Origin: Verrucomicrobiota bacterium
GTDB taxonomy: Bacteria; Verrucomicrobiota; Verrucomicrobiia; Palsa-1439
Assembly (NCBI GenBank): GCA_003164675.1
Contig: PLTX01000034.1
Coordinates: 9,680 to 73,679, forward strand
Reading direction: 5' to 3'
DNA length: 64,000 bases
In this document: positions 2,671-63,811 of the stretch, piece by piece
Layout: each line of letters starts with the position of its first letter
Numbering within the stretch: the first letter of the stretch is position 1
Notes under the pieces: model-generated
Told to the model about the DNA's origin: nothing
What the model saw: the letters and a program-made list of their open reading frames with translations, nothing else
Database searches by the model: none
Translations under genes and position numbers: made by a program

Positions 2671-2683
2671 TATCGCTGTCCCC

Positions 2684-3304: not shown

Positions 3305-3393
3305 ACGGTGTTGCCGAACGCCGCGCCCGTTTCACCGCTTGCGCAACCGACATGCCCGCCGTACTATCTTCCCCGAGGAAATCAATCCCGTTT

Positions 3394-4089
3394 ATGGAAA
3401 ACGAAATCATGACGCTCCGCGAGGTCGCCGAGTACCTCAAACTGAGCGAAAAAGCCGTCAGCCGCATGGCGCAGGAAGGCCGCATCCCCGCGCAAAAACT
3501 CGCCCGCCAGTGGCGCTTCCAGCGCGACCTGATCAACTCATGGATGATCGACCCCAACCGCGTGCCCGCCGACCAGCAGCAGTTGCCGCCCGAATCCACC
3601 GGCATGTCGCAACCCCTGACCGTGGCCAGTGTCATTACCCCCGCGCACATCAGCCTCAACCTCACCGCGCCCGACAAGAACGGCGTGCTCCGCGAGTTGT
3701 GCGCGCTCGTGATCGACCCGCGCGAGGAGCGGCTGTTTGAAACGCTCTTCCAGGCGCTCAAGTCCCGCGAAGACCTCTGCCCCACATGCGTCAGTGAAGG
3801 CGTCGCCATCCCGCACGCCCGCAACGCCCTCATCGGCCTCGTCGACAACCCTGTGCTCGCCTATGGACGCCACAACAAGGGTGTCGACTTTGGCGCGCTC
3901 GACGGCAAACCCGTGTACCATTTCTTCCTGCTCTGTGCCCCGAATGTGCGCCAACACCTGCGACTGCTCTCGCGCCTGTCCCGGCTGGTCAATAACACCA
4001 ACTTCCGCGCCCGGCTCATGACGGCGCAACAACCCGATGACATCATCGCGCTGATCAGCGAAGTCGAACCGACCATCCCCGGGGCCTGA
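3394..4089 (+). CDS. Fusion protein: excisionase/MerR-type HTH DNA-binding domain plus PTS EIIA type-2 (PtsN/EIIA-Ntr-like) domain
   Basis: N-terminus MTLREVAEYLKLSEKAVSRMAQEGRIPAQKLARQWRF is an HTH_17/excisionase-family domain. The C-terminal domain carries the EIIA-2 phospho-His signature GVAIPHAR. It is the in-frame downstream part of ORF 2665..4089; the upstream part overlaps lexA and is rejected. Confidence 0.65.
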   Translation: MENEIMTLREVAEYLKLSEKAVSRMAQEGRIPAQKLARQWRFQRDLINSWMIDPNRVPADQQQLPPESTGMSQPLTVASVITPAHISLNLTAPDKNGVLRELCALVIDPREERLFETLFQALKSREDLCPTCVSEGVAIPHARNALIGLVDNPVLAYGRHNKGVDFGALDGKPVYHFFLLCAPNVRQHLRLLSRLSRLVNNTNFRARLMTAQQPDDIIALISEVEPTIPGA

Positions 4090-46438: not shown

Positions 46439-48712
46439 ATGAATACGAGCCGTTTCATCGGCGCGGTCGTGATATTTCTTTGTGCCTTATCCCAGGGAAC
46501 GGCACAGGAGCGCGCATCAGACAATCCGTATCCTTTGCTTGTACGTTTTTTGGGAAATCACCGAGCATTCAGTGCGACGCTTGTTTCCGTTGTTCAGTCA
46601 GAGGACGGCATGGTGATGGAAGGTGGGAGTTATCAATACACTTATCTGAACGGCAACGTTCGAATCGAATCGGCTTTTTCGTCGCAGTGGTCAGCACTGT
46701 TTGCCATCTCGCCTCCTGACACCAACGCGATCAAGCGTGCTGGACTGGATTTGATCGTGGAGGTGTTCGCACCTGATAGGAAGAAACTCTGCCTTATCTT
46801 CCCCAACGCGCGGGCCTACTGCGAAACGGAGATCCCCGCTGAGATTCATCCGCCGAAGGAAGGTGACCTGAAGATAGATCGCGTCCCGGACGGCTCGGAG
46901 ATCATAGATGGTCACCCTTGCGCCCGAACCAAGGTGACAATACACGAAACGAAGCCAACCCCCGGAACCGAGGAGAAAGTCACTGCGGTGTTATGGGCAG
47001 CACAGGACCTGGATGGCTTCCCAGTGAAGATTAAAGCACGCTTGGAAACCCCCATGGGTGTGTTCACATCCACTGAAGCTTTCACCGACATCAAGCTGGT
47101 GACTCCCGATAGTTCACTTTTTCATCCACCGCCCCACCTGAAGATCTATCGAAGCATGGACGAGTTCTCCGAAGCCATACAGAACGCGACGGCTACCGGT
47201 GAAGAGCGGACCCGGCGATTCTGGGCCGCCGTGGAAAAGGGCGATGTGGTTCAATTGGAGTCCTTTTCGAAAAAGGATCCAGAGCTGCTTCGGGCGCTCG
47301 CGAAGGACGATCAAACCCCGTTGCACGTTGCCGCCCGGGTAGGGCAGAAGGAGGTAGTCCAGTGGTTGGTTAACAAGAAGGCGGATGTGAATGCCCGAGA
47401 CGGACGGAAATCCACCCCGCTACACGAGGCTGCTGTAGGAAATTCAGCCGCCGTTATTGATATCCTGCTGAAGGCAGGGGCGAAACTTGAAGCCTTGGAC
47501 AATGATGGTCACACGCCTCTGCTTGTCGCGGCATCGAAGGGATCAAAGGAAACCGTTGAAGCCTTGTTACGGGCCGGGGCGAACGTCAGCCCGAGCGACA
47601 CGCAGGGGATGACATCACTTCATCTCGCAGCCGCTCGCGGGGAAAAAGATATTGTCACAATTCTGGTCTCTCATAAGGCCGATGTAAACGCCAAGAACAA
47701 ACAAGGTCTGACTCCCTTGTGGGAAGCTGTTTTACAGGGCTACGAAGGTGTAGTGGAAGTTCTCACAGCAGGCGGAGCCAACATCAATCAGATCGGGGTT
47801 GATGGACAAACACCTTTGCTCTGGGCCGTCGGAAACGACAGGAAGGCAATGGCGGGCACGCTTGTGGCCTGCAAGGCCGACGCGGCCACGAAGGACGCAT
47901 CCGGACAACCGATATTCCTCATTGCATTCCGCAACGGCAATTTGGAACTTGCTCGAAAACTTGTGGCAGAGCCGACGGACGTGAACCTCAAAGGACGTGG
48001 AGGCTTCACGGCAGCGCATCTGGCGGCGGCTCACGATTGGGTGGATGTCTTGAAAATCCTGATCGCTCGGAAGGCCGACATTGGTGCGGTGGACGATTTC
48101 GGTACCCGTCGTCCGTTACACTTGGCCATTGAAAGGGGCTCCCAATCAGCGGCTGAGTTCCTCGCGCACGTCGATCCGGATCTGGAGGCACGAGACGCTC
48201 ATGGAAGGACTCCATTGCAGATGGCCGCTGAGAAGGGCTGGACGAATGTTGTGGAGGCGTTGTTGACTGAAGGCGCCGAGCCGTGTGCCCGCACCGGTGA
48301 CAGGATGACTCCGGCGATGCTTGCGGAGAGAGCCGGTCATCAGGAAATCGCGATTAAACTCAAGCAACAGGAAGAGCAATGCGATAATACAGTGCGCAAA
48401 CTCGAAGATTCTCTTCACGCCGCCGATACTTCGGAACTGAAAACCCTGCTGGAAGCCCGCCCGCATTTGATCAATCATCGAAACCAACAAGGCCAGTCAC
48501 TTGTTCAGCAGGCGGTTCTGGCCGGCAGCGCATCTGCGGTTGGGTTGCTTCTGGCGCAGGGGACGAATTGGGCTCTGAATCGGGAGCCCAACCATATTCT
48601 GAACGATGCAGCACGTCGTGGGGACAGTCAGATCGTCGAGCTATTGTTGGCACATGGAGCACCACGCAGACGTCAACGAGGGGGATGGCAGGCTCTTGCA
48701 CGTGGCTGCTGA
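46439..48712 (+). CDS. Secreted ankyrin-repeat protein (N-terminal about 270-aa non-ANK domain + about 14 ANK repeats); apparent 3' part of the same gene continues in another frame
   Basis: Signal peptide MNTSRFIGAVVIFLCALSQGTAQE, followed by tandem G.TPLH.AA..G...VV..LL..GADVN repeats. Confidence 0.75.
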   Translation: MNTSRFIGAVVIFLCALSQGTAQERASDNPYPLLVRFLGNHRAFSATLVSVVQSEDGMVMEGGSYQYTYLNGNVRIESAFSSQWSALFAISPPDTNAIKRAGLDLIVEVFAPDRKKLCLIFPNARAYCETEIPAEIHPPKEGDLKIDRVPDGSEIIDGHPCARTKVTIHETKPTPGTEEKVTAVLWAAQDLDGFPVKIKARLETPMGVFTSTEAFTDIKLVTPDSSLFHPPPHLKIYRSMDEFSEAIQNATATGEERTRRFWAAVEKGDVVQLESFSKKDPELLRALAKDDQTPLHVAARVGQKEVVQWLVNKKADVNARDGRKSTPLHEAAVGNSAAVIDILLKAGAKLEALDNDGHTPLLVAASKGSKETVEALLRAGANVSPSDTQGMTSLHLAAARGEKDIVTILVSHKADVNAKNKQGLTPLWEAVLQGYEGVVEVLTAGGANINQIGVDGQTPLLWAVGNDRKAMAGTLVACKADAATKDASGQPIFLIAFRNGNLELARKLVAEPTDVNLKGRGGFTAAHLAAAHDWVDVLKILIARKADIGAVDDFGTRRPLHLAIERGSQSAAEFLAHVDPDLEARDAHGRTPLQMAAEKGWTNVVEALLTEGAEPCARTGDRMTPAMLAERAGHQEIAIKLKQQEEQCDNTVRKLEDSLHAADTSELKTLLEARPHLINHRNQQGQSLVQQAVLAGSASAVGLLLAQGTNWALNREPNHILNDAARRGDSQIVELLLAHGAPRRRQRGGWQALARGC

Positions 48713-49946
48713 TACATGTAACACCGGAATAGTGGTTGTGCTCTTGGAGCACGGCGCCCGTGTTGCCGGGGACGACTATGCACGAGGACCAGCCTATACC
48801 AAGGACTGCGCCAACGTAATGGCTGATTTGATTAGACCCTATCGTGTTGCGCAGTCGGCACGGTTGATTTTCGAAGCGGCCGGCGCAGGAGACGTTGAAA
48901 CAACACGGAAACTTTTGTCTGCCGATACTGGTCTCATCAGCGCCACCAACCAGGATGGAGCAAATCCATTGTTCTCGGCCGCTCAGTCTGGGCGGCAAGA
49001 AGTCGCAGAACTGCTTTTGGCGAGCGGGGCTAATGTAAACGCCACAGCAAGGCCGAGCACCACGCCACTTTTTGTCGCTGTAGCCGGGCCGCACGAAAAA
49101 CTGGTTGAACTGCTGTTGGCGCATGGTGCATTCGTCGACGCGAAAGACAGTGACAATTGCACGCCATTACGCCTCGCTGCGATGGGCCCTTTTGCTGACA
49201 GGAACTATACACAAATCGTGCGAATGCTGCTGGCGAAGAATGCCAATCCCAATATTGCGGATAAGTGGGGTTGGACCCCATTACATTGCGCAGCTAGAAT
49301 GGGCCACACGGATGTAGTGCAAGCCCTCCTGGCATACAAGGCGGCCCTCGAACTCAAAACGAAAGAGGGTTATACGGCGCTATATCTTGCGGCGATGTAT
49401 GGGCACGGCGAAATCGTCGACGTTCTTGTACACGGCGGCGCTGAAATCAACGTGAAGGACAAGCACGATTCAACGCCTTTGCACGATGCAGCCGCCGGAG
49501 GACACGCCGGCTCGGTAAAGGCTCTCGTGACGAGCGGGGCTGCCGTCAATGTCACCAACGGGACTGGAGCTACACCGCTCCACGCGGCAACAACCAAGGA
49601 AGTCGCCGACATTCTCATCGCGAACGGAGCCAAAATCGGCACGTGCGATGCCCATGGCTTTACTCCTTTGCACTCCGCCGTCTCTGCAAATCGCATTGGA
49701 GTTATCCAGGTCCTTCTTGCGAACAATGCAAATCCCAACTCGAGGGAAAAGACCGGAAAGACCCCGCTGCACTTCGCAGCAAGCGAAGAGGCGGTGGATT
49801 TGCTCTTGGCGCATGGCGCAGATATCAACGCTGTTGCTGCCGACGGGTTGACCCCCATTGATGAGGCTAGGCATGCTAACAGGATCGACATCGCTACCTA
49901 CATGCACCAGCAATCTCTGGTGAATGCGAAGGCACACGGGAATTAG
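48606..49946 (+). CDS. Ankyrin-repeat protein (about 12 ANK repeats); likely the frameshifted continuation of 46439..48712
   Basis: Frame-0 ANK repeats begin exactly where the frame-2 ANK repeat of the upstream ORF is interrupted at about 48661-48668. Confidence 0.65.
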   Translation: MQHVVGTVRSSSYCWHMEHHADVNEGDGRLLHVAADTCNTGIVVVLLEHGARVAGDDYARGPAYTKDCANVMADLIRPYRVAQSARLIFEAAGAGDVETTRKLLSADTGLISATNQDGANPLFSAAQSGRQEVAELLLASGANVNATARPSTTPLFVAVAGPHEKLVELLLAHGAFVDAKDSDNCTPLRLAAMGPFADRNYTQIVRMLLAKNANPNIADKWGWTPLHCAARMGHTDVVQALLAYKAALELKTKEGYTALYLAAMYGHGEIVDVLVHGGAEINVKDKHDSTPLHDAAAGGHAGSVKALVTSGAAVNVTNGTGATPLHAATTKEVADILIANGAKIGTCDAHGFTPLHSAVSANRIGVIQVLLANNANPNSREKTGKTPLHFAASEEAVDLLLAHGADINAVAADGLTPIDEARHANRIDIATYMHQQSLVNAKAHGN

Positions 49947-51777: not shown

Positions 51778-53247
51778 ATGAATCGCGATCTATTGGCGCT
51801 GTCCGGTCAGTACTTTGACCTCTTGGTCATTGGCGGCGGTATCTTTGGAGCCGCCGTCGCCCGCGACGCAGCCCTGCGGGGACTGCGCGTGGCGCTCATC
51901 GAGAAATCGGATTTTGCCAGCGGAACTTCGAGTCGCACGTCCAAATTGATTCACGGCGGCTTCCGCTATCTCCAACAACGTGATTTCCGTCTCGTGTTTG
52001 AGTCGTGCCGTGAACGACACATTTTGCAGCAAACTGCTCCCCATCTCGTGCGGCCGCTCCCGTTTTTGTTCCCGATCTACGAGGGCGGAGAGATTTCGCT
52101 CACAACGCTGCGACTCGGCATGAGCCTGTATGATTGGCTGGCGCTTCGCCGCAATGTCGCCCCGCACCAAACACTTTCCGTCGAGCGGACCCTGATGAAC
52201 GAGCCCTCGCTGTCACGCAAGGGCCTGCGGGGTGCCGTGGCCTTTTACGATTGCCAGGAGGACGACGCTCGTTTCTGCATCGACCATATCCTCCACGTCT
52301 CCGAATTGGGAGCCTCGTGTATCAACTACTGCTCGCTGACCGGCCTCATTACCCGCGAGGACCGGATCGTGGCGGCGCGCGTGCGGGATGAAGTGGGCTT
52401 GTGCACGTTTGAAATCTCCGCCCGGGTATTCGTCAATGCGACGGGACCGTGGGTGGAACAGGTGTGCGGGCTGACGCCGTTCGACGCCGGAGCGGTGCGC
52501 CTCAGCCCGGCCAAGGGCGTTCATCTGGTCGTGCCGCGGCTCACGCGGCAACACGCCATCGCGTTTCAGGCCCGGAGCGATCATCGCATCCTGTTTGTGA
52601 TTCCGTGGGGCGACTACTCGTTGCTGGGCACAACCGACACCAATTTCGGTGGTGATCCCGCCCAAGCGCGAGTCGAGCAGGCGGAGATCGATTATCTGTC
52701 GGCGGAAGCGCGGGCGATTTTCCCCGATGCGCCACTTTCCGATTCGGATGTGATTACCACAACGGTCGGCGTGCGTTCGGTTGCCGCGTCGGCGCTGGCG
52801 TCGCCGTCAGCGCGTTCCCGCGAACACCGCGTGGTGCGAACGGGGCGCAATCTTTTGAGCATCATTGGAGGTAAGTACACCACCCATCGGGTCATCGCGC
52901 AGCAAACCGTTGACGCAACCTATGGGCTTCTCGGTGTGGCGGCCCCGCCGTGTCGCACTGCGGAGGTTCTCGTGCCGAATCGCCGGCCCGCGGCCGCCGG
53001 GGAGAAAATATCCGAGGCTCCGAAGGTACACGCCAGCGACATTATCCACGCCTGCCAACAGGAGATGGTCGTAACGCTCGAGGACGTCATGCGGCGGCGC
53101 ACGCCTCTGGCGCTGAGCCGGGCGGGCGGTCCGGAAGTCGCCTCGACGGTGGCGCATCTGATGGCGCCGCTGATGAATTGGAGCTCCGATGAAGAGCGCT
53201 CCCAGTTCGAGCGCTACGTGGAAGAATGGAAGCGTAGCCTGCCGTGA
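51778..53247 (+). CDS. glpD: FAD-dependent glycerol-3-phosphate dehydrogenase
   Basis: FDLLVIGGGIFGAAVARDAALRGLRVALIEKSDFASGTSSRTSKLIHGGFRYL closely matches the GlpD N-terminus. Confidence 0.8.
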   Translation: MNRDLLALSGQYFDLLVIGGGIFGAAVARDAALRGLRVALIEKSDFASGTSSRTSKLIHGGFRYLQQRDFRLVFESCRERHILQQTAPHLVRPLPFLFPIYEGGEISLTTLRLGMSLYDWLALRRNVAPHQTLSVERTLMNEPSLSRKGLRGAVAFYDCQEDDARFCIDHILHVSELGASCINYCSLTGLITREDRIVAARVRDEVGLCTFEISARVFVNATGPWVEQVCGLTPFDAGAVRLSPAKGVHLVVPRLTRQHAIAFQARSDHRILFVIPWGDYSLLGTTDTNFGGDPAQARVEQAEIDYLSAEARAIFPDAPLSDSDVITTTVGVRSVAASALASPSARSREHRVVRTGRNLLSIIGGKYTTHRVIAQQTVDATYGLLGVAAPPCRTAEVLVPNRRPAAAGEKISEAPKVHASDIIHACQQEMVVTLEDVMRRRTPLALSRAGGPEVASTVAHLMAPLMNWSSDEERSQFERYVEEWKRSLP

Positions 53248-53933
53248 CGACACAGCCCTTGATTATCGCGCACCGCGGCTTCAGCGGTCGCTATCCGGAA
53301 AACACACTGGCCTCCGTGCAGGCCGCCCTCCAGCTTGGCGTTGATTTTGTGGAGATCGACGTGCAGGAAACGGCGGACAGTGAGTTGATTGTCTTTCACG
53401 ATTACGGGCTTCGACGGCTCTGTGGCGTACGCGGCCGGGTCCGCGACAAGACGCTGGCGAAAATCCGCCGGCTGAATCCCCAGGTGCCGACGTTGCGGCA
53501 GGTCTTGCATGCCTGTCGGGGAAAGGCCCGGGTGCTCATTGAAATCAAGCGGGCCGATCCATGCAAGGTGGCCGCGGTGGTCAGCGAGACGCGCATGGAG
53601 AACAACGTGATTGTGTTTTCGTTGTCGATCCGGCGGATGAAAGAGATCGCGGCGGCGAACCCACGGATTCCGCGGTTTGGGTTAGTGGCGCGGCGTTTGC
53701 CCTTGGCCGTGGCGCGTCTCGAGACGGTCGGTATCGAGGGTATCGGATTGAGTCGGCGGCTTGTCCGTTCGCAGCGCGTTGTGCGACGGATTCACAAACG
53801 GGGCTGGAAACTTTTTGTGTGGACAGTCAACCGCGAAGCCGAGATGAACAAGCTGTCAGGTTGGGGCGTCGATGGCCTCATTACGAACCATCCTGACATT
53901 GCAAAGGAATGTAACCAGAACTTCGGACAATAA
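53244..53933 (+). CDS. glpQ: Glycerophosphodiester phosphodiesterase
   Basis: IIAHRGFSGRYPENT...VEIDVQETADSELIVFHD (GP-PDE active site H-R...E-D-H). GTGA overlap with glpD. Confidence 0.8.
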   Translation: MTTQPLIIAHRGFSGRYPENTLASVQAALQLGVDFVEIDVQETADSELIVFHDYGLRRLCGVRGRVRDKTLAKIRRLNPQVPTLRQVLHACRGKARVLIEIKRADPCKVAAVVSETRMENNVIVFSLSIRRMKEIAAANPRIPRFGLVARRLPLAVARLETVGIEGIGLSRRLVRSQRVVRRIHKRGWKLFVWTVNREAEMNKLSGWGVDGLITNHPDIAKECNQNFGQ

Positions 53934-54017: not shown

Positions 54018-54074
54018 GATTCGTGGCTAAATCTTGTCTTGCGGAGCGGTGAGCTTCCGCTATGCTTTGACCGT

Positions 54075-54425
54075 ATGCTGCAGATCATTTTCAACCCCGT
54101 AAGCGCCAAAGAACTGGCGGCGCTGCCGCGCAAGCTCCAGCTGGAAATCATCGATGGCTTCCAGTTGTTCCCGCACGATTTCGAGAAGGACGACGAGAAA
54201 TTTGGGCAACTCACTCGCGCCGGGAAGAAGATTTATCGGTACCGCGTGAAGGATTACCGGATCTACTTCGAGCGCAATGGCGACATCATCAACGTGCGCT
54301 GCATTCTCAGCAAGAATACGCTGAAGGACTTCTTCTTTCGCAGCAAACTCCCGATTTCCGAGGACCAGCTTCTTCAAGAGAATCCGAAATTCTGGCAGTT
54401 GCTCGAGTCGAGCGCGGAGAAGTAG
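54075..54425 (+). CDS. RelE/ParE-family toxin-like protein with a roughly 30-aa C-terminal extension
   Basis: AGKKIYRYRVKDYRIYFERNGDIINVRCILSKN matches the RelE/ParE core (G..lyElRv.dyRiiY....d..i.il.i.hR). There is no HTH/RHH partner upstream, where a repeat element sits. The gene is low GC. Confidence 0.5.
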   Translation: MLQIIFNPVSAKELAALPRKLQLEIIDGFQLFPHDFEKDDEKFGQLTRAGKKIYRYRVKDYRIYFERNGDIINVRCILSKNTLKDFFFRSKLPISEDQLLQENPKFWQLLESSAEK

Positions 54426-54829: not shown

Positions 54830-57800
54830 TCACGCCTTCAGTGCCGCTGTAAACCTCGGCACAGTCTCAAACAAATCACCCACAATAGGCACAACCTTGG
54901 GCCGGGCGCGGCGTTTGTTCAACGTCATCAGGGGCGCATCGGCGTCCTTGTTGAAGGCGATGATGGTGGCTTGTTCGCCGATGTAATCGACGTGTTGCGG
55001 CGCGCCGCTGACGCCGATGGAGATGATGAGCTTCGGGTTGACGGCGGTGCCGGTCTGGCCGATCTGTTGCTCGAAGGTAAGCAGCTTCAATTCCTCGACG
55101 ACTTTACGGGTGCCACCGAGCATGACGTTCTTCACCCCAATTTCCTCGAGGCGTTTCTTGAGCGGCAGGATCACCAAATCGAAATTCTCCCGATTGCGCA
55201 CGGCGTAGCCGACATCAATGATGAACTCGGCATCGGCAATGGATTTCACGCCACTGTCGTCGTGCGTGGCTCGTAGCGCTTGGGCCAGTTCGTCGGTTGC
55301 GGCATCGTATTCAAACTCCAGTGGAACCAGAAACACATGCTTCTCGCTCTCCGCTCTTCCCTTTCCTCTCTCCGCTTCACCCGCCACGGTCATAGCCAGC
55401 GGATGCTCGGCGATTTGTCCGATGGTCGCGACGCGTTGGACCTTGCCGCCGAAGGCCGGGGAGACGAGATCGACGCTGCCATTGCGGGAAACGGCCTCGA
55501 CCACGTTGTAGCGGGCTTGCACACGCGGGAACGTCCGGGCGAATTGCGCAAGAAGTTCGTTGGCCCACGTGCCGGAAGCCAGCACAGCGGGCAACAGATC
55601 CTTCCATATGGTTTGCAGCGCCGCGAGTAGGGCGGATGAAGTGGAATTTTGCAGATGTTCAGAACTGACGAAGTAAATGGAATCAGCGTTTACGCGGGCG
55701 GCGACCGAGCGGACGGATGCTTCGTCAAAGCAGCCGAGCATCAATACGTGAAAGGGCAGAGACAGCACGGCGGCCGTCGCGGCAGCGGTTTCGACGCCGT
55801 CAAGTTTATCGGGCGTGGCGACGAACACGGCTGCGTTACGCCCCGGGAGTTTGTCCGGGGTGATTGACTCGATTTTGCCCGAGAACGAGCCGCTGCCCCG
55901 TGTCATTGTTTCAACACGCGCGATCTTCCGCACCAAGGCAGCAACGGCTTCGGGCGTTGTTTCCATGCCCTCTGCGACGGTTGGTTTCCCGGGTAATCGG
56001 TAGCGCAGATCAAACTGCGGACCAGTCGCGAGTTGTGCGGCATCGACGACTTCGAGGGGCTTGGTCAATGCGTCGAGATAATCATCGACGCTGAACTCGA
56101 GGTCGGTCGAGGAATCGGCCATGGCGAGGACGACAGGGCCATCGGTGGCGATCGAAACATCGAGTTTTTGCAGGCTAAGTTTTGTTTGATCGCCGGCAAT
56201 GATGAAGCCCTTGACGTTGGAAAAATGCGCCTGGCCGAGATTGCCCGCGAGAACGGCGGCGAGAACGGCGTCGCCACACAAGACGAGGTCGCAGGGTAAT
56301 TGCTTCTGGCCGGCGAGATCGGCAATAAGCCGCGCGGCATCGTGCGGGCTGTCGAGAAGATCGTCAGTTTTGATCAAGGCAGCGTTGTCGGCGCCAAGCG
56401 CGAGGGCACGGAGCAATGATTCCGTGGCGAATTGTGGAGCGGCGGCGATCGCGGTGACCGTGACGTTGTCGGAAGCGGATTTCAATTCGATGGCGTGTTG
56501 GAGTGCCGAGCGACTGGCCGCGTCGATGTCAAAATGCGTTTCCAACAACTCGCCGTTGATGACGCGAGGTCGCGGCGAGAGAACGGGCGCGATGTTCAAC
56601 ACGACCAGCACGTGCAGCGGGTGCGTCACGCGGTGGGCGGGGCGGGCGCGGTGTTCGGTTTCGCGGCCTTCGTGCGCTTGCAGCGATAATTGCGCGACTC
56701 GGATGTCGGGCGGGTAGAGGCCTTGCTTGAGCAATGTGAGATCGCGCTCGAATTCTGACTGGAGCCGCTCGATCTCGCGTTTGGCGTAGTCGAGATAGGC
56801 CTGGCAGGATTGTTCTGCAAATGTGCGATGAGAGGCATCGGTGTCCGCGCAATTCTGTTTGAGCCACTTGGTGCGCCAAAGGGCGGAGTCCACCACTTTT
56901 AGGTAACCCGCGATCTCGGCGAGCTTGAACATGATGGGCTGGAAATTCGCATTCTGCCAGGTTTGCGCGCCGAAGGTGTCGGCAGCGCGGCGCAACGTGC
57001 GGAGGAAGGTAACCCGGGCTGCTTCCAGCGGATCGGCTGGCAGCTCGCCCTCCAGTTTTGCCTGCGGTAGTACGTGGTCGAGCAAGTCGCGGAGGATGAG
57101 GAAGCGTTGGACTTCGTTGGTGCCTTCGTAGATGTTCAGGACGCGGGCGTCGCGGCGATGCTTTTCCAATTCGTGCATCTGGGTACTACCTTCGATGCCC
57201 ATGATCTTTTCGGCAGCACGGATGGTGCGATGGAGGGCTTCGCTGGCGTAATATTTGCCGATGGCGGACTCGGTGCGGACGGATTTCGTGCCGTGATGAT
57301 CGGCGCGGCCAATGAGTTCATAGGCAAGCGACTCGGTGGCGTATAACTCGGTGGCCATGCCGCCGAGGATTTGCAGGGCCCATTCTTCCTTGTCGAGTTT
57401 GTGGTCGAGAATGAACGCGCGGGTTTGTTCGACGATTTTCGCCATCATCGACACGGCGCTGACACAGAGGCCGAGGCGGCCGACATTGAGGGTCTCGAGC
57501 GCATTGACCTGGCCGCGGCCTTCGATGCCGATGACGTTTTCGCGCGGGACGCGGACGCTGGTGAGGCCGAGTTCGTTGGTCGGCGAGCCGCGCTGGCCCA
57601 TTTTCTCCTCGTCTTTGCCAACGACAAGCCCTTCGGCGTGACGATCAACCATGAAACCGGTCGGACCTTCCTTCGTGCGGGCGTACAGACAGAAAACGCC
57701 GGCGACATGGCCGTTGGTGATCCACATCTTCGCGCCGTTGAGCTCGTAATACTCGTAGAACTCCTCGTCGCCGTCGCGGCGGATTTGCGCGATGTCGTGG

Positions 57801-60800
57801 ATGGGGATGCGCTTGCCATTGTGTTGGTAGTAACGGAACTTCGTCGGGTCGTCGGTCTTGTAGTCGTACTCGCTATAATCAATCTTCGAGAGATCGACGG
57901 TCGCGGCGTCGATGATGTTTTTGCGGTCCGTGCCGAGCATGAAATATTTCGCGCCGTCGGCGTCGGTGAGGACCTCGACCCTTTTCAATTCGGCGCGGGT
58001 CTGAATTCCGCCGGAATCGGAGCCGGCGCTGGGTTCGGTCAGGGCGAACGCGCTGATCTGGCCGGCGGAGATGAGACGGAGAAAAAATTTGTGGGCCTCG
58101 GCGCGGCGGTCGAGTTCGGCAATGACGGCTTCGGCGCGGGGTTGGAGCGAATCGAGTGTGGCGAGCGACTTTTGAAGTTCGCTCTTGAACGCGACGAGGT
58201 CGGTACGCAGGCCGGCGCGGCCGGCATCCATGAAATGAGAGAGAAAATCGCTGGCGATGGCGCGGAGCATCGGTTTCTTGCCGATGTCAGTCTTCACTCT
58301 TTCGCCCAAGTCGGTGAAGACTTTCTTCACCTTGAGCGCTTCCGGTGATTCCAACATGCGAAGGATCCGCGAGATTTCCGATTTGAGATTGGAGAGGAGC
58401 GACGTGTTGGACAGAAACTCCTGCAGATCGGCTTTGGCGCGCGGCAGATCCTGGTTGAGGCCGAGTAGGATCGGCGTGGTGCCGATGCTCGAATGGGCCA
58501 TGATCGTCAGCGCGTACGACGGGTCGGCGTAGCGCATCGAGAGTGGGCAGAGGATGTAGTAGTGCGCCTTGAGCAGGCCTTCGCCGCCGAATTCCTTCGG
58601 GATGTACATACGGGTGAAACCGCGGGCAATCATGTCGCGTACGTCGGGGAGCGGGACCATGTGCAGTTTCTCGACGAGGCGGTGATAGGGCAGGCCATCG
58701 AAACGGGCGTTCCAGAATTTCTCGGTGAAATATTTGTGGAGCTCGTTGAAATAGGCATTGAGCTCGGCGTCAGCGTGCAGCATTTCGGGCGTGAAGCGCC
58801 AGGAGTTGGCGTCGAATGGTTTTACGAGGAAATCGCCGTAGTCGTATTCCTGTTTCGTGTCGAGTGCTTCGCGGTAATTGAATGCGGGCGGGCGTTGGAG
58901 AGGTGCTTCGATGTAGCCATGTTCAAGAACGGATGCGCCAAGGCCGGTGGGATGGGGTATGGGCGTTGCGCCCGTGAACATTTTGGCGAGTTCGGCGTCG
59001 AGTTCGCTGGTGATGGGGAGGGGGCGAATGGCGGCTTGCGAGAAGGCGGAGAGTTTGGCGTTGACCTCCGGACCGACTTGGCGACGGAGTTCCTCGTTGT
59101 CGTAGAGCAGATACGCGAAGCTGACGCTGTCGCGATAGAATTTGGAGAGAACATCGTCTTCGCTGTAAGCGGTGCCGCCGAAGATCTGGCCGGCGTTGTA
59201 GGTGAGGCTGCCGGGATCAGGTCCGAGAGCCTCCGAAGCGAGCAGTTTGACCAGCGCGGGTTCCTTGTCGGCCTGTGGGAGCAACGCCTTCAGAAGATGG
59301 ACCTGTGCTTCCATTTCGCTCAGGAGTTTTTTGACGGAGCCGAACTTGATGATGCCGTCATGCCCATCTTCGTCCTTAAAGAGCCCCGGGAATTGAACGC
59401 GGCTCGTGGCGTGCTGGTGGCAGCGTTCCAACAACATTTCGCCCGCGCCGAGCGCGATGGCGCAGAGGTCGGTGGCGGTTTGCTGCAGTGTCAGGGTTTG
59501 TTCCGGCACAAATTCTTTCCACACACTGCGGGCAGCCGTGAGGCCGATCCATGGGTGCTCCGCGAGTTCGGGTCGGGCGGCGACCTGTGCGGAGTAAATT
59601 CCGGAAACAAGCGCGGCCAGCGCCGGGTCGCGGCGGGCGAGTTCGCGCAGGATGATGTCCCGCGGCGGCGACGCGGCCTCGGCCAGGACGTGCAGGAAGT
59701 TCCTCTGTTCCTGCGCGAGCGGGTTGCCGTGTTCGAGGTCTTTGATGGCCTGTTTCGAAAAAAGCTTTTCGAGACGCGCCACCATGGCGATGCGCGTTTG
59801 GAGCGGTCGGTCGACGGGCGGCACGGGTGGCGGCGGGAGATGTTCCAGCAACTGGCGCGCGTCGGCCTCGGCCCAGAAGAATTTGCGGCGCTTGGCGTGG
59901 ACGACGATGCGAGCGATCTGCTGGTCGATGCGCGGGTTCTTGATGTCGGCGGCGATGGGTTGCGCCTCAACGAGCAGATGCTGCAACCAGCGGGTACGGC
60001 CGGCGTCGACGTAGCGTGGCCCGGCGTAGACGGTTTCGGAGAATTCGTGGAGTTTGGCGGAGAGCGCGAGGACCTTGTCGGGCTTTGTGTTCAGAGCGAG
60101 ACCAGTAATGTCGACTTCGCGGGGGAGACTTCTTGTGTTATCCGGCGCGGTGGACTTTTGCAGCGCGAGAAGTTTCGCATTGGCGATGGTTGGGGCGCTG
60201 TAAATCAGGCGCTGCTTGCGCTGACGGGTCCAATCAACGTCATTCGGGGCGGAGCGCCAGCAGGTTTCGCATTTGACGCAGTTTTCAAAATTGACGACGA
60301 GCTGCGACTGGCCGAGGTCGTCGGTGAGACATTCGTAGACCCTGGCGGGGCAAACGTGCCAGAGCGGGGACTCGGCGATCTTGGCGCGGTTCTCGAAGTT
60401 CTCGGGACGGAAGACCTTGATGTGCGAGTGATGCTCGGAGAAATAGCGGATGAGCGAAAGCTTTTCCTCCCACGGCTGCTCGATTCTCACAGCGTCGGGG
60501 TCAAGCTTCACGCGGTCACGGGTGAGTGCACGATATTTCTGGAAGAAGCCGGAGAGGAATTTCTCAGGTGAAGGGCGCGTGATAATGAGCCAGATGAGTT
60601 CGCAGATCCATTGGATCGGCATTAGCACGAGCAACAGTGCGGCGAAGACAGGGAAGGCGATGTGGTCGAACAAGCTCAAGCTATGTCTGGCGGAACGGAT
60701 GGCCCGGGAAAGCTTGACGGGCAACGTTGTGTCATCGTTGCGATACAAGTGGTCGGCGGCGACGGCGAGAATTTGTGGCGCTTTACGGAACAGAACCGAA

Positions 60801-62284
60801 ATGGGCGGAAGGAAACTGGATAGCGGCTCGCCATCGACGCAGAAATCGAGATGGAGTTTGCCGCCGGCGGATGAAGATATGATGAATGATTTTGCGGAGG
60901 GCTTGGTGGCGGCCTTCAGACCGAGCGCGTCGCGTTGTTCGCGAAGATCGCGAAAGAGCGGGACCCATTGTTTCAGAGGTAATGTTTCGCGGGTGAACTT
61001 GGCGAGTTGCCAGAGTTTCTGGTGCGTGCCAAGCGAGGGATTGCTGGCGATGTAGAGCGTGCCGGTGGCCAGGTCGGCGGCGCGACCGAAAAACACGCGC
61101 GTATGCTCGACGTAGTGCGGCCATTTTTCCAGGAACTCGACGTTTTTGAAATAATGCGTGTTGCGGAGCGGACGTTCGTAGAGTTCTTCGAGGCGCGCGC
61201 GAGAGAAGGTTCTGTCGGTTGTGCGGATTTCCAGAATTGCGTGGGCAAACAGGTGCCCCATCGCCGTGGCCGGGCCGGTGAAATTGGGGTAGGGGAAATC
61301 GAGACCGACGCCGGTGGCGGCGCCGCCGATGGCCAGGCCGTTGTCGACGAGTTGCGGGAGTTCGCGAACGCCCCCGCCACGGATGATTTTCGCGCCGTAG
61401 GCGGTCGAGCGACTGTTGTTGGTCCAGCGTTTGACTTCGGGCAGGCCCTTGAACCATTCCATGAGACGGTTGTGGTCGCCGCCGAACTCTTTGCTGAGAT
61501 TCTCAAGCGGCAGCACAAGGCCAAGCGAGATGCTGGACTTGTTCGTGTACAGGAAGCCGCCCATGTTGAGATTGGCCGTGCGATTGTGGATCGAGCCGTT
61601 GCGCAGCAGGATTTCGAAGGCGGCGCCTTCGCCTTTTGGCAGCGCGAACGTGTGCTCGATGTAATCGGGGTCGACCTCGATGATTTCCTTGATGCCCTGG
61701 AGGAAATGCGGCGCGCCGGGGTCGGTGGTGCGTTCGTAGCCTTCCTTCGAGACGAGCTGCGATGCGTCGCCTTCGGCGAGGAACACCACGTCGGCATAGA
61801 TGGAGCCACGGTCGGTATGAACGCCGATGATGCGGTTGTTCTCGTCGCGGAGCAGGCCGTCGACCGTCGTCTCCGTGAGAATGTGCGCGCCGAAAGATTT
61901 CGCGAGTTCGGCGAGGTAGTGATCGTAGGTGGGGCGCAGAACGGTGTAGCAATTGGTGAAGGTGGAAGGGTTGCGGTAGCTGAGTCCGGCGAGCGAGTGG
62001 CCATTGTAGATGTAGAAGCCACGTTTGGTGACGGGACGTTCGTGGGCGGAGTTGCGAACCACCTCTTCGCCAAGGACATCCGGTTGGGCGAGGTTCTCGG
62101 TGAAATAGACCGCGCCCGACCAATTCTCCGCCCCGGGAAACGCGCCGGCCTCGATGACAAGGACAGGGATGTCCGCCTTCGCCAGAGCGATGGCGGCGGT
62201 GATACCGGCTGGTCCTGCCCCCACGATGACGACGTCATATTCCCAGGAAGCCATGCGCGGATCATTATAGAGAGTCCGTAGCAT
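54830..62284 (-). CDS. 2484-aa multidomain megaprotein: ETF-ubiquinone oxidoreductase (FixC/FixX-like) + acyl-CoA dehydrogenase + ETF beta + ETF alpha fused in one ORF
   Basis: Uninterrupted 7455-nt ORF. The N-terminus YDVVIVGAGPAGITAAIALAKADIPVLVIE (FAD Rossmann) runs through a membrane-association helix to VCPARVYEC...NFENCVKCETCW (ETF-QO 4Fe-4S domain, about aa 650-690). The ACAD core follows at about aa 1250-1760 (AFALTEPSAGSDSGG, NGAKMWITNG, YEGTNEVQRFLILRDLL). An ETF-beta-like block is VLVVLNIAPV...ALGADNAALI. The ETF-alpha C-terminal FAD domain is QIGQTGTAVNPKLIISIGVSGAPQHVDYIGEQATIIAFNKDADAPLM...IVGDLFETVP. Confidence 0.85.
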   Translation of the reverse strand: MLRTLYNDPRMASWEYDVVIVGAGPAGITAAIALAKADIPVLVIEAGAFPGAENWSGAVYFTENLAQPDVLGEEVVRNSAHERPVTKRGFYIYNGHSLAGLSYRNPSTFTNCYTVLRPTYDHYLAELAKSFGAHILTETTVDGLLRDENNRIIGVHTDRGSIYADVVFLAEGDASQLVSKEGYERTTDPGAPHFLQGIKEIIEVDPDYIEHTFALPKGEGAAFEILLRNGSIHNRTANLNMGGFLYTNKSSISLGLVLPLENLSKEFGGDHNRLMEWFKGLPEVKRWTNNSRSTAYGAKIIRGGGVRELPQLVDNGLAIGGAATGVGLDFPYPNFTGPATAMGHLFAHAILEIRTTDRTFSRARLEELYERPLRNTHYFKNVEFLEKWPHYVEHTRVFFGRAADLATGTLYIASNPSLGTHQKLWQLAKFTRETLPLKQWVPLFRDLREQRDALGLKAATKPSAKSFIISSSAGGKLHLDFCVDGEPLSSFLPPISVLFRKAPQILAVAADHLYRNDDTTLPVKLSRAIRSARHSLSLFDHIAFPVFAALLLVLMPIQWICELIWLIITRPSPEKFLSGFFQKYRALTRDRVKLDPDAVRIEQPWEEKLSLIRYFSEHHSHIKVFRPENFENRAKIAESPLWHVCPARVYECLTDDLGQSQLVVNFENCVKCETCWRSAPNDVDWTRQRKQRLIYSAPTIANAKLLALQKSTAPDNTRSLPREVDITGLALNTKPDKVLALSAKLHEFSETVYAGPRYVDAGRTRWLQHLLVEAQPIAADIKNPRIDQQIARIVVHAKRRKFFWAEADARQLLEHLPPPPVPPVDRPLQTRIAMVARLEKLFSKQAIKDLEHGNPLAQEQRNFLHVLAEAASPPRDIILRELARRDPALAALVSGIYSAQVAARPELAEHPWIGLTAARSVWKEFVPEQTLTLQQTATDLCAIALGAGEMLLERCHQHATSRVQFPGLFKDEDGHDGIIKFGSVKKLLSEMEAQVHLLKALLPQADKEPALVKLLASEALGPDPGSLTYNAGQIFGGTAYSEDDVLSKFYRDSVSFAYLLYDNEELRRQVGPEVNAKLSAFSQAAIRPLPITSELDAELAKMFTGATPIPHPTGLGASVLEHGYIEAPLQRPPAFNYREALDTKQEYDYGDFLVKPFDANSWRFTPEMLHADAELNAYFNELHKYFTEKFWNARFDGLPYHRLVEKLHMVPLPDVRDMIARGFTRMYIPKEFGGEGLLKAHYYILCPLSMRYADPSYALTIMAHSSIGTTPILLGLNQDLPRAKADLQEFLSNTSLLSNLKSEISRILRMLESPEALKVKKVFTDLGERVKTDIGKKPMLRAIASDFLSHFMDAGRAGLRTDLVAFKSELQKSLATLDSLQPRAEAVIAELDRRAEAHKFFLRLISAGQISAFALTEPSAGSDSGGIQTRAELKRVEVLTDADGAKYFMLGTDRKNIIDAATVDLSKIDYSEYDYKTDDPTKFRYYQHNGKRIPIHDIAQIRRDGDEEFYEYYELNGAKMWITNGHVAGVFCLYARTKEGPTGFMVDRHAEGLVVGKDEEKMGQRGSPTNELGLTSVRVPRENVIGIEGRGQVNALETLNVGRLGLCVSAVSMMAKIVEQTRAFILDHKLDKEEWALQILGGMATELYATESLAYELIGRADHHGTKSVRTESAIGKYYASEALHRTIRAAEKIMGIEGSTQMHELEKHRRDARVLNIYEGTNEVQRFLILRDLLDHVLPQAKLEGELPADPLEAARVTFLRTLRRAADTFGAQTWQNANFQPIMFKLAEIAGYLKVVDSALWRTKWLKQNCADTDASHRTFAEQSCQAYLDYAKREIERLQSEFERDLTLLKQGLYPPDIRVAQLSLQAHEGRETEHRARPAHRVTHPLHVLVVLNIAPVLSPRPRVINGELLETHFDIDAASRSALQHAIELKSASDNVTVTAIAAAPQFATESLLRALALGADNAALIKTDDLLDSPHDAARLIADLAGQKQLPCDLVLCGDAVLAAVLAGNLGQAHFSNVKGFIIAGDQTKLSLQKLDVSIATDGPVVLAMADSSTDLEFSVDDYLDALTKPLEVVDAAQLATGPQFDLRYRLPGKPTVAEGMETTPEAVAALVRKIARVETMTRGSGSFSGKIESITPDKLPGRNAAVFVATPDKLDGVETAAATAAVLSLPFHVLMLGCFDEASVRSVAARVNADSIYFVSSEHLQNSTSSALLAALQTIWKDLLPAVLASGTWANELLAQFARTFPRVQARYNVVEAVSRNGSVDLVSPAFGGKVQRVATIGQIAEHPLAMTVAGEAERGKGRAESEKHVFLVPLEFEYDAATDELAQALRATHDDSGVKSIADAEFIIDVGYAVRNRENFDLVILPLKKRLEEIGVKNVMLGGTRKVVEELKLLTFEQQIGQTGTAVNPKLIISIGVSGAPQHVDYIGEQATIIAFNKDADAPLMTLNKRRARPKVVPIVGDLFETVPRFTAALKA

Positions 62285-62368
62285 TTGAAAAGTCTCGCTC
62301 GAAAATATCGCACAGGCTGTGGAACTTCTGTAGAGTGACGGGTGTCAGACTTCGATGGAGGGCAGATT

Positions 62369-63811
62369 ATGAAGCTACGCAGGCTGATGATTCCGCTGGC
62401 CGCTGTTCTTGCCGCCACGACCGCTCTCGCTGTCGATCAACCGCAAGAAGGTGTGGCGCTCACGATCTACAACCAGAACTTCGGCGTGGTGCGCGAGCGA
62501 CGCAAGGTCAAAGTCGAGGAGCAGATCGGCACGGTGCGGTTTTCCGATGTCGCGTCACAGATCGATGGCACGAGCGTGCAGTTCAAGTCGATCACCGACC
62601 CCGACGCCGCCGTGTTGGAGCAAAACTACGAGTACGACCTCGTTTCCGCCGACAAGCTGTTGGAGAAATACATCGACAAACAAATTGAGGTGCTGACGAA
62701 GGACGGCTCGCACTATTTGGGCACCTTGCAGAGTTTTGATGGCAACCAACTCGTCATTCGTCAGGCCGGCGAGAAAGCCGGGATTGTGATGGTGCAGCGC
62801 GGCGACAACGTGAAGGACATCCAGTTTGGCGCGTTGCCGGAGGGATTGATTACCAAACCCACACTGGTGTGGAAACTGGCCACGGAGAAGGTTGGGGAAC
62901 AGTTGATCGAGGTGGCGTATCAAACCGGCGGGATCAACTGGCAGGCGGATTACAACGCCGTGCTCAACGCGAAAGACACGGCACTCGATCTCGGCGGCTG
63001 GGTGACGATCAACAACCAATCAGGCGCGACCTACAAGGACGCGAAGTTGAAGTTGATTGCGGGAGATGTACGCCGCGTGCAGATGCCGGTGCCGCAAGGC
63101 GCAGTAGGTTCTTATCGCGCCATAGGCATGGCGAGAGAGGCTGCTGGCTTCGAGGAGAAGGCGTTCTTCGAGTATCACCTGTACACACTCGGGCGGCCGG
63201 CTACCGTGGCGCAGAATCAGACGAAGCAGATTGAACTGCTGAAAACGGCGGGCGTTCCCATGAAGAAAGTCTTTCTTTACGATGGCGCACCGCAGTTTCG
63301 ATTCTACGGTGGGTTGAACAGCGACGCCAGTTATGGCAGCGAAGAAGGCAACAAGAAGGTCAACGTCCTCATCGAGGTCAAGAACTCGAAGGACAACCAT
63401 ATGGGGATGGCGTTGCCGAAAGGGAAGGTGCGGTTGTACAAGCGCGACGAGGCGGACGGGTCGCTGGAGTTCGTCGGCGAGGACGAGATCGACCACACGC
63501 CGAAGGATGAAACGGTAAAGCTGCACATCGGTGACGCGTTCGACGTTGTGGGTGAGCGCAAGCGGACGAATTTCAGTATCGATGTCAATGCCCACGTGAT
63601 CACCGAGAGCTTCGAGACTCGCATCCGCAACCACAAGACCGAGCCCGTCGAAGTCCTCGTCAAGGAGACCCTTTACCGCTGGAACAACTGGGAAATCACC
63701 CAGTCGAACCAGAAGTGGACGAAGTACGACTCCAACACGATTCACTTCCCTGTGAAGGTGGATAAGGACGGTGAAGCGGTAGTGACGTACACGGTGAAGT
63801 ATACTTGGTGA
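62369..63811 (+). CDS. Secreted DUF4139/DUF4140-family protein (TIGR02231-like)
   Basis: Signal peptide MKLRRLMIPLAAVLAATTALA. Beta-rich, about 480 aa, with N- and C-terminal domains characteristic of the family. The ORF opens at 62342. Confidence 0.55.
   Translation: MKLRRLMIPLAAVLAATTALAVDQPQEGVALTIYNQNFGVVRERRKVKVEEQIGTVRFSDVASQIDGTSVQFKSITDPDAAVLEQNYEYDLVSADKLLEKYIDKQIEVLTKDGSHYLGTLQSFDGNQLVIRQAGEKAGIVMVQRGDNVKDIQFGALPEGLITKPTLVWKLATEKVGEQLIEVAYQTGGINWQADYNAVLNAKDTALDLGGWVTINNQSGATYKDAKLKLIAGDVRRVQMPVPQGAVGSYRAIGMAREAAGFEEKAFFEYHLYTLGRPATVAQNQTKQIELLKTAGVPMKKVFLYDGAPQFRFYGGLNSDASYGSEEGNKKVNVLIEVKNSKDNHMGMALPKGKVRLYKRDEADGSLEFVGEDEIDHTPKDETVKLHIGDAFDVVGERKRTNFSIDVNAHVITESFETRIRNHKTEPVEVLVKETLYRWNNWEITQSNQKWTKYDSNTIHFPVKVDKDGEAVVTYTVKYTW

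Follow-up and report, generated by a model that had tools for sequence, protein, structure and literature searches.

Electron transfer from acyl-CoA dehydrogenases (ACADs) through the electron-transfer flavoprotein (ETF) to ETF:quinone oxidoreductase (ETF-QO) is a textbook case of transient docking, in which the flavin domain of ETF swings between its partners. In the mitochondrial and proteobacterial chain, the stations and cofactors are the flavin adenine dinucleotide (FAD) of the ACAD, the FAD of the ETF alpha subunit, a [4Fe-4S] cluster together with FAD, and quinone, and they are carried by three or four separate diffusing proteins. Here we describe a gene from a Verrucomicrobiota bacterium whose product holds the same stations and cofactors in one chain. 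It lies in a 64,000-nucleotide stretch of contig PLTX01000034.1 (positions 9,680 to 73,679 of the forward strand), and this whole stretch is called the window in what follows. The coding sequence occupies window positions 54830-62254 on the minus strand (stop codon 54830-54832) and specifies a fusion protein of 2474 amino acids (aa) with a mass of ~270 kDa, which we are inclined to regard as a self-contained, membrane-attached, non-bifurcating acyl-CoA:quinone oxidoreductase with three FAD and one [4Fe-4S] cluster.

The fusion protein exhibits considerable similarities to several described systems, but there are also significant differences. It shares with the mitochondrial and proteobacterial chain the equivalents of ETF alpha residues R249, T266, and H286 and a one-cluster Fer4_ETF_QO domain, but its quinone reductase is nearer to FixC, its EtfB part has lost the AMP loop, and it contains an additional, degenerate ACAD (pseudo-ACAD). 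The closest solved relatives of its FixC-like and FixX-like modules belong to the EtfABCX/FixABCX systems (Thermotoga maritima, 7KOE; the Fix proteins of A. vinelandii). EtfABCX consists of four subunits, uses NADH as donor, and contains a bifurcating FAD and two [4Fe-4S] clusters in EtfX, whereas the fusion in the window's clade has no site for NADH or bifurcating FAD, has one cluster, and has a built-in ACAD as its donor. The Bcd-EtfAB and CarCDE complexes (5OL2, 4KPU/4L1F, 6FAH) are encoded in the operon order ACAD-EtfB-EtfA, which is also the module order of the fusion, and the similarity of their ACAD and EtfA components to the fusion is in the range seen for other ACADs and ETFs. However, these complexes are soluble, non-covalent, bifurcating, and reductive, with ferredoxin as partner, while the fusion is covalent, linked to a quinone reductase, and devoid of the beta-FAD site.

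Two partial precedents are available. In Sulfolobus acidocaldarius, EtfB and EtfA form a single-chain ETF in the same order as in the fusion (PMC12042025), but this protein, SaETF, is bifurcating and has neither ACAD nor QO. BOOR from F. nucleatum, which is reported to combine an ACAD, EtfA domain II, and a rubredoxin, is a precedent for an ACAD tethered to the FAD domain of ETF (PMC12630350; Bystrom and Wolthers, 2024). It has no ETF base and no QO, and a flavodiiron protein and O2 receive its electrons instead of quinone.

For the ACAD together with its helical extension, the best fold matches are long ACADs of the dimer type (VLCAD, ACAD9, B. anthracis 3OWA, and T. thermophilus 2Z1Q). Unlike these proteins and the heteromeric alpha2beta2 ACADs (M. 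tuberculosis ChsE4-ChsE5), the fusion has its putative partner subunit in cis, at the N-terminal side and without a beta-barrel, and its catalytic ACAD differs from the dimer-type enzymes in having large inserts in the N domain and the beta-domain. Finally, mycobacterial EtfD and Syntrophus EMO, which are ETF:menaquinone oxidoreductases of the HdrD/DUF224 type, perform the same job of passing beta-oxidation electrons via ETF to the menaquinone (MK) pool (PMC13083937). They are unrelated to the fusion, being integral membrane proteins with haem and unusual Fe-S clusters, and their ETF and ACADs are separate proteins.

Full-text literature searches found no description of a complete chain composed of QO, pseudo-ACAD, ACAD, EtfB, and EtfA. 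The building blocks all belong to known families and the implied chemistry would be conventional, while the architecture is striking and widespread.

Architecture of the Fusion Protein

The minus strand of the window contains one stop-free open reading frame (ORF) of 2484 codons at 54830-62284, as seen in the ORF list and its translation. Residue numbers in this text are positions in this 2484-codon ORF and are not counted from Met11 (M11), the start adopted here; the nucleotide coordinates given for the domains are window positions on the minus strand. The initial annotation had described a single uninterrupted ORF carrying QO, ACAD, EtfB, and EtfA, and this description is borne out by Pfam, NCBIfam, PDB-chain, and profile matches; the motifs that it quoted (CVKCETCW, TEPSAGSDSGG, YEGTNEVQRF, ISIGVSGAPQHVDYIG, and PPPPVPPVDRP) are all present in the translation.

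From the N- to the C-terminus, the chain consists of a FixC-type FAD domain, an insert with a hydrophobic helix, a one-cluster [4Fe-4S] domain, the degenerate ACAD, a complete ACAD with a helical extension, an EtfB-like domain, and EtfA domains I and II. Pfam matches above the gathering cutoffs follow this order, namely the FAD Rossmann families (aa 15-183), Fer4_ETF_QO (PF05187, aa 618-685; 33-37 bits, with 33.1 in the ORF scan, against a cutoff of 24), a stretch of Acyl-CoA_dh_1 in the degenerate ACAD (aa 932-1055; 23.1 bits against 22.4), Acyl-CoA_dh_N (PF02771, aa 1201-1274), Acyl-CoA_dh_M (PF02770, aa 1504-1576), and Acyl-CoA_dh_1 (PF00441, aa 1589-1734) in the complete ACAD, ETF (PF01012, aa 1918-2083; 49.3 bits against 26.7), and ETF_alpha (PF00766, aa 2349-2432; 54.7 bits against 27). 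NCBIfam models of the FixC type match aa 13-406, FadE/ACAD models match approximately aa 1500-1740, and EtfA-type models match aa 2267-2483. No NCBIfam model reached its own curated cutoff on the fusion protein; because every match scores far below it, the protein is claimed by no curated family.

The domain order had been offered as an argument that the gene did not arise by simple stop-codon loss within an operon. This argument is weak, as each block retains its usual gene order: FixC followed by FixX, and ACAD followed by EtfB and EtfA, are familiar from fixABCX and from the clostridial bcd-etfB-etfA operon. EtfB genes usually stand before EtfA genes (PMC12042025).

Acyl-CoA Dehydrogenase and Pseudo-dehydrogenase

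The catalytic ACAD (57035-58792; aa 1165-1750) was assigned from Pfam, PDB, and Foldseek matches and displays the three-domain ACAD fold, with the N alpha-domain, the middle beta-barrel, and the C alpha-domain all above their Pfam gathering cutoffs. It contains TEPSAGSDSGG at aa 1416-1426 and the catalytic Glu1720 within YEGTNE, and both motifs are invariant across 29 diverse homologues. Sequence matches in the PDB include ACAD9, VLCAD, 3owa, and Bcd (E-values of 1e-37 to 1e-31), with CarC also among the matches, and Foldseek gives TM (template-modelling) scores of 0.7-0.88 for the ACAD model. Of the inserts, the one in the N alpha-domain is made up of long helices (~115 aa), and the one in the beta-domain spans ~70 aa. 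The domain is followed by a C-terminal helical extension of the VLCAD/ACAD9 type (56615-57034; aa 1751-1890), the helices of which lie at positions 1063-1189 of AlphaFold2 model 1. The best structural matches are the dimer-type ACADs 3owa, 8phe, 2uxw, and 2z1q, of ~550-590 aa, and the substrate of the module is probably a long-chain acyl-CoA.

Upstream of the catalytic ACAD, a helical linker leads into the pseudo-ACAD (58793-60214 together; aa 691-1164), which has the fold of an ACAD but lacks the beta-barrel. In its C-domain (59105-59491; aa 932-1060), the RxQF(P/G) and GQxFGGxAY/RD motifs are retained, but Leu stands at the position of the VLCAD catalytic Glu. A profile of the pseudo-ACAD aligns in register with the VLCAD C-domain (E-value of 1e-8), pairing 'HATsRvQFpg' with 'HATNRTQFGE', 'GQvFGGtAf' with 'IQIMGGMGF', and the catalytic Glu with Leu. 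This alignment, the Pfam match at aa 932-1055, and the ACAD fold support the second ACAD C-terminal-like helical domain noted in the initial annotation. A direct comparison of aa 735-1165 with aa 1165-1890 by hhalign, as a sign of internal duplication, gave an E-value of 0.11, which is too weak alone. An AlphaFold2 model of the pseudo-ACAD plus ACAD (1200 residues) is compact, with a mean confidence score (pLDDT) of 85 and a predicted template-modelling score (pTM) of 0.84.

The pseudo-ACAD has a dN/dS ratio (nonsynonymous to synonymous substitution rates) of 0.03-0.07, a constraint equal to that on the catalytic domains. It was not found outside the fusion family among 120 clusters drawn from 1.84 billion representatives: full-length matches all occupy the family position, and shorter ones look cut by contig ends, as was the case for the one that was checked. 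In conventional ACAD dimers, each subunit uses its RxQFG and QxxGGxGY motifs to touch the FAD of its partner, as seen in the MCAD and VLCAD structures. Because the pseudo-ACAD retains these FAD-contacting dimer motifs (RxQF and GQxFGG) better than the catalytic ACAD does, we propose that it is probably a cis stand-in for the second subunit of an ACAD dimer, which would leave one active site per chain.

Electron-Transfer Flavoprotein Module

The EtfB-like domain (55904-56614; aa 1891-2127) was delimited by a family profile, loop alignment, and the Pfam ETF match. As a single sequence, it matches PDB EtfB chains only with E-values of 0.008-0.2, whereas the family profile matches them with E-values of 2e-30 to 6e-20, the C-terminal helix included. 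The AMP/beta-FAD phosphate loop is deleted: 8 residues are missing between DLVLCGD and AVLAAVLAG, at approximately 56267-56278. The nucleotide-loop motif xQAIDxDxxQxG is absent in this way from the window protein and from all Verrucomicrobial short-form orthologues, while long-form clades keep it. The position of Gly123 (A. fermentans numbering), which is diagnostic of bifurcating ETFs, lies inside this loop (PMC12630350). The ETF-beta block of the initial annotation therefore stands with respect to its domain III fold (PF01012; profile E-value of 2e-30), but with the nucleotide loop lost in the Verrucomicrobial clade, the domain is no longer a normal EtfB but a scaffold.

A linker (55835-55903; aa 2128-2150, TRGSGSFSGKIESITPDKLPGRN) separates the match to the EtfB C-terminal helix from the EtfA match. 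EtfA domain I (55265-55834; aa 2151-2340) is poorly conserved and was placed by alignments to 5ol2_A and 7qh2_A. A column check showed that the Arg of the EtfA 'TRP' motif, which serves the bifurcating FAD, is absent: it is Ser in the window protein and Ser, Thr, or Met in most of the family, and Gemmatimonadota members retain an Arg before Pro in this domain. Because the nucleotide loop is deleted and the 'TRP' Arg is replaced, the Verrucomicrobial clade would be expected to have no second flavin and no bifurcation, and the base formed by the EtfB-like domain and EtfA domain I is probably a scaffold only.

EtfA domain II, the mobile FAD 'head' (54833-55264; aa 2341-2484), was identified by the Pfam ETF_alpha match, residue alignment, and conserved columns. 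Its Arg2393, Thr2411, and His2431 correspond to R249, T266, and H286 of human ETFA in alignments to 1t9g_R and 1efv_A, and are invariant or nearly so. The contrast with the ETF base is marked. No part of the fusion protein is less conserved than the base, while the FAD head ranks with the most conserved parts, with identities to the long group of homologues (defined below) of 15-39% and 40-64%, and dN/dS ratios of 0.1-0.18 and 0.03-0.05, respectively.

Quinone Reductase Module

The N-terminal domain (61055-62254; aa 11-410) is an FAD-dependent quinone reductase domain of the FixC/EtfC type, with the GxGxxG motif at VVIVGAGPAG and a dN/dS ratio of 0.04-0.10. Residues 15-408 match 7koe_C, the EtfC/FixC subunit of T. 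maritima, across residues 4-393 of 438 (E-value of 3e-40). The NCBIfam FixC-type models PRK10015 and PRK10157 match with E-values of 1e-42 to 1e-46, but with 146-157 bits against cutoffs of 466 and 610; by these scores, the domain is a FixC homologue and not a FixC equivalog. The match to pig ETF-QO (2gmh) is far weaker, covering no more than aa 242-380 (232-370 when counted from M11) with an E-value of 7e-13. Thus, of the "complete ETF-QO" originally assigned to the N-terminal half, the FAD domain and the one-cluster 4Fe-4S domain in one chain stand, but the FAD part is much nearer to FixC/EtfC.

A family-specific insert (60434-61054; aa 411-617) follows, with an invariant YxNDD..KL motif and a hydrophobic segment. 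A hydropathy scan identified aa 538-569 (60578-60673) as the sole hydrophobic segment of the fusion protein, and AlphaFold2 models it as a single long helix with pLDDT values of 84-89. Its hydrophobic character is kept across all phyla, but its sequence is not. This helix is presumed to be a monotopic membrane anchor, a reading that is preferred because a true transmembrane pass would split the FAD and CoA domains across the membrane.

The ferredoxin domain of the FixX/ETF-QO type (60215-60433) matches 7koe_D (EtfX) with an E-value of 1.6e-4 and follows the FAD domain on its C-terminal side within one chain, a layout found in ETF-QO. Exactly four Cys columns are conserved family-wide (Cys645, Cys669, Cys672, and Cys675), and no second [4Fe-4S] motif of the FixX/EtfX kind was found in the domain. 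As only these four columns are conserved, the domain would hold one [4Fe-4S] cluster, as in ETF-QO, in contrast to the two clusters of T. maritima EtfX (PMC10734219) and of EtfX/FixX proteins in general (PMC6085437).

Conservation and Distribution

A word-indexed search of 5.8 billion proteins returned 466 homologue matches, the best 120 of which are nearly all full length (2200-3000 aa) and carry the same Pfam set. The 117 full-length members that were aligned are collinear from end to end. Roughly half of them (59) form a short, Verrucomicrobial group that is 55-92% identical to the window protein, while 57 form a long group that is ~37% identical to it and owes its extra length to inserts at a few fixed points. 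When GTDB species were scanned with one representative genome each, 221 of these genomes proved to contain relatives of the gene, and the family is thus conserved in hundreds of uncultured bacteria of soils and sediments. Among the loci, the best 77 comprise 28 from Verrucomicrobiota, 17 from Acidobacteriota, 15 from Gemmatimonadota, 10 from Planctomycetota, 4 from Nitrospirota, and 3 unclassified; all are from uncultured organisms (76 are titled as metagenome-assembled genomes, MAGs), and closed chromosomes and long-read assemblies are among them. The fusion, which the initial annotation had proposed to look for in related genomes, is accordingly present and collinear in both related and distant ones. 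The related proviso, that the architecture might be a routinely annotated family, holds in part: the family is not rare, but the labels that pipelines attach to it are generic ones ('acyl-CoA dehydrogenase family protein', 'ETF-quinone oxidoreductase'), and it is claimed by no curated NCBIfam model.

Comparison with four orthologues by the Nei-Gojobori method gave dN/dS ratios of 0.03-0.38 in all 18 segments, linkers included, and every segment of the fusion protein is under purifying selection. An apparent split form without the FixC domain, with representatives of 2075-2330 aa, was rejected, as the one that was checked starts at base 11 of its contig and is cut by the contig end.

Some genomes contain two diverged copies of the fusion gene (loci L003 and L015 in one MAG, and L043 and L069 in another). 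This suggests paralogues with differing substrate ranges.

Proposed Mechanism and Alternative Explanations

In the reaction sequence that we propose, the ACAD module, by way of Glu1720, would oxidize an acyl-CoA, probably long-chain, to 2-enoyl-CoA with reduction of its own FAD, the site of which would be completed in cis by the RxQF and GQxFGG motifs of the pseudo-ACAD. Single electrons would then pass from the ACAD FAD to the FAD of EtfA domain II, seated on the scaffold of the EtfB-like domain and EtfA domain I. EtfA domain II would swing to the single [4Fe-4S] cluster of the FixX/ETF-QO-type domain. From there, electrons would continue to the FixC-type FAD and end on quinone at the surface of the membrane, to which the conserved hydrophobic helix would hold the chain. 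All of the modules are found, collinear, and conserved in both short and long forms, which favors this scheme.

The host is taken to be a respiratory organism with a quinone pool, since the window holds a complex I (nuo) operon. The phyla in which the fusion occurs are, as far as is known, menaquinone users. By analogy, the quinone is probably menaquinone, because this general trait is joined by the menaquinone binding of the closest relative, EtfC: T. maritima EtfC binds menaquinone, and EtfABCX is a menaquinone-reducing, membrane-associated complex (PMC10734219).

Several points weigh against the proposed scheme. The couple acyl-CoA/enoyl-CoA lies at ~-10 mV and MK/MKH2 at ~-74 mV, so that on established redox values the transfer from acyl-CoA to menaquinone is uphill, and tethering leaves the thermodynamics unchanged; the problem of this uphill step is discussed elsewhere (PMC3582634). 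Long-form clades retain a loop of the DTxQG type in the EtfB part, and a second nucleotide may bind there. Among solved structures, those nearest to the FixC-like domain and, by a slight margin, to the EtfA part come from bifurcating systems (7koe_C, 5ol2_A, and 4kpu_A). The single 32-residue hydrophobic helix could be taken as a transmembrane pass, although this would be topologically awkward. The cis pseudo-dimer is argued from motif logic and the pTM of a model only.

The uphill step and the bifurcating relatives might suggest that the protein is a bifurcating or confurcating machine, that is, FixABCX and Bcd in one chain, with a second FAD in the EtfB-like part that couples NADH, ferredoxin or flavodoxin, acyl-CoA/enoyl-CoA, and quinone. 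Such coupling could drive the uphill step to menaquinone. Support for this comes from the FixC-like domain, which is closest to EtfC of T. maritima EtfABCX, a bifurcating system; from the top EtfA matches, which are the bifurcating ETFs 5ol2_A, 4kpu_A, and 6fah_A; from the DTxQG-like loop of the long forms; and from Gemmatimonadota, in which EtfA domain I still has the Arg ahead of Pro. However, the EtfA part aligns nearly as well with the canonical human ETF as with a bifurcating ETF (E-values of 2.9e-12 and 2.3e-13, respectively), the ferredoxin domain has one cluster against two in FixX/EtfX, and no ferredoxin or flavodoxin gene is a conserved neighbor across the 77 loci. Moreover, the window's clade has lost the nucleotide loop and has exchanged the Arg for Ser while its other modules are still strongly constrained, and the ETF base, in which the second flavin would reside, is the least conserved part of the protein. 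We therefore regard bifurcation as unlikely.

The redox potentials could also be taken to mean that the enzyme runs in reverse in vivo as a menaquinol-dependent enoyl-CoA reductase. In the menaquinone-using host phyla, this direction would be thermodynamically favored, as the acyl-CoA/enoyl-CoA couple lies above MK/MKH2, and the related ACADs Bcd and CarC, both among the PDB matches, act reductively. Against this, the ACAD is most like the catabolic long-chain enzymes VLCAD, ACAD9, and Bacillus FadE, the Verrucomicrobial gene adjoins the lipid-catabolic genes for GlpD and glycerophosphodiester phosphodiesterase (GDPD), and mycobacteria oxidize fatty acids through menaquinone via EtfD, so that the uphill step is feasible (PMC13083937). 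A reverse reaction appears, if anything, slightly less likely still than bifurcation. That the gene is an assembly or frameshift fusion, or a pseudogene decaying from neighboring genes, has a vanishingly small chance despite its unusual length and its occurrence mostly in MAGs, because the 466 database homologues, dozens of them full length, and the 221 species-representative genomes, with closed chromosomes and long-read assemblies, make the family widespread, its members are collinear across all domains, dN/dS is low in all 18 segments including linkers, and seemingly N-truncated variants look cut by contig edges, as was seen for the one that was checked.

Returning to a non-bifurcating acyl-CoA:quinone oxidoreductase, the arrangement would be of interest in several respects. 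With donor, shuttle, and acceptor in one chain at 1:1:1, it would be a handy object for cryo-electron microscopy and for kinetics of the ETF swing, and a possible engineering use is the coupling of acyl-CoA oxidation straight to quinone or an electrode. The pseudo-ACAD in cis and the nucleotide-free EtfB scaffold would be tidy cases of the decay of subunits into structural domains after fusion. The enzyme would also reveal the route by which electrons from fatty acids enter respiration in Verrucomicrobiota, Acidobacteriota, Gemmatimonadota, Planctomycetota, and Nitrospirota, a step that in menaquinone bacteria is under active study through the unrelated EtfD (PMC13083937). A more far-reaching and decidedly speculative idea, to which we give little credence, is that this family supplies the missing link from beta-oxidation to menaquinone in several abundant, mostly uncultured soil phyla, and that at least the long-form chains, with their retained EtfB nucleotide loop, surmount the uphill step by means of a second flavin, through confurcation or bifurcation with NAD(H) or a low-potential carrier. 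If so, the fusion would be the first single-polypeptide energy-coupling machine of the Bcd/EtfAB/FixCX type.

Start Codon and Promoter

Translation almost certainly begins at the internal ATG (62254; M11), which gives the 2474-aa protein. This start was chosen because most homologues begin with MASWKYD, matching M11 of the ORF (N-termini of 60 homologues), because the protein called by NCBI (P0001) has 2474 aa and is 100% identical to the fusion protein, and because the ten upstream "codons" are a conserved promoter. The latter is a promoter of the sigma-70 type (62264-62291, minus strand), with TTTTCA at 62286-62291, a 16-nt spacer, and TATAAT at 62264-62269, 9 nt upstream of the ATG. A consensus promoter scan scored it at 10/12 matches with the 16-nt spacer. 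The TTTTCA/TTCAAA and TATAAT boxes are kept in the window and in ~25 orthologous Verrucomicrobial loci, with the ATG 6-10 nt past the -10 box, and where the frame runs open upstream, a recurring 'RTAYNARM' pseudo-peptide reflects conserved DNA rather than protein. The short distance from the -10 box to the ATG implies that the mRNA would be leaderless or nearly so, and the near-leaderless start with ten non-coding first codons, suggested from the window alone, is thereby supported by the -35/-10 pair of the orthologous loci.

Two more conserved DNA boxes, 'CTACAAGAGTTCC' and 'GCGATATTTTC', occur upstream of the -35 box at approximately 62295-62345 (minus strand) and in the Verrucomicrobial orthologues (L001-L024). 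They may be binding sites for a regulator, located in the 87-bp intergenic region from which the fusion gene and a DUF4139 gene diverge. Acidobacteriota orthologues (L031, L035, L056, L059, L060, and L069) have another upstream pattern, a repeated 'CATACC/CATA', with an A/T-rich box close before the ATG. Short or missing leaders may be general in this gene family.

Gene Neighborhood and Other Features of the Window

All-versus-all clustering of flanking ORFs from the 77 loci yielded no gene partner conserved across phyla, and only clade-specific synteny was seen. The neighbors are GDPD, GlpD, and DUF4139 genes in Verrucomicrobia, amidohydrolase and MutY-like genes in Acidobacteriota, and a UDG gene in Gemmatimonadota, none of which is functionally linked to the fusion gene. 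Because no neighbor is shared across phyla, the fusion gene looks self-sufficient from its genomic setting.

The DUF4139 gene (62342-63811, plus strand) is divergent from the fusion gene, starts ~90 bp away from it, and is kept beside it in 15 Verrucomicrobial loci. On the other side, genes for a GlpD-like glycerol-3-phosphate dehydrogenase and the GDPD (51778-53933, plus strand) are convergent with the fusion gene and are kept in 20-23 Verrucomicrobial loci (L001-L025 and L038) but not in other phyla. As enzymes of lipid head-group breakdown, this pair hints at a link to lipid turnover, or reflects mere relatedness. The GDPD gene is separated from the 3' end of the fusion gene by a small conserved ORF (approximately 54039-54425, plus strand), which is also found at L023:17552-18028 (minus strand). 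This ORF has no Pfam match, and its '...KIYRYRVKDYRIYFERNGDIIDV...' stretch recalls RelE/ParE toxins.

An Rfam scan detected no RNA families in the window. Within the nuo operon, a NuoE-NuoF fusion (22509-24320, plus strand) joins a thioredoxin-like 2Fe-2S domain to the 51-kDa FMN and 4Fe-4S domains. Two adjoining ankyrin-repeat proteins of 757 and 446 aa (46439-48712 and 48606-49946, both plus strand; Ank E-values of 1e-63 to 1e-68) are unusual in a free-living bacterium. In addition, one ORF (2665-4089, plus strand) combines HTH_17 and PTS EIIA-2 domains.

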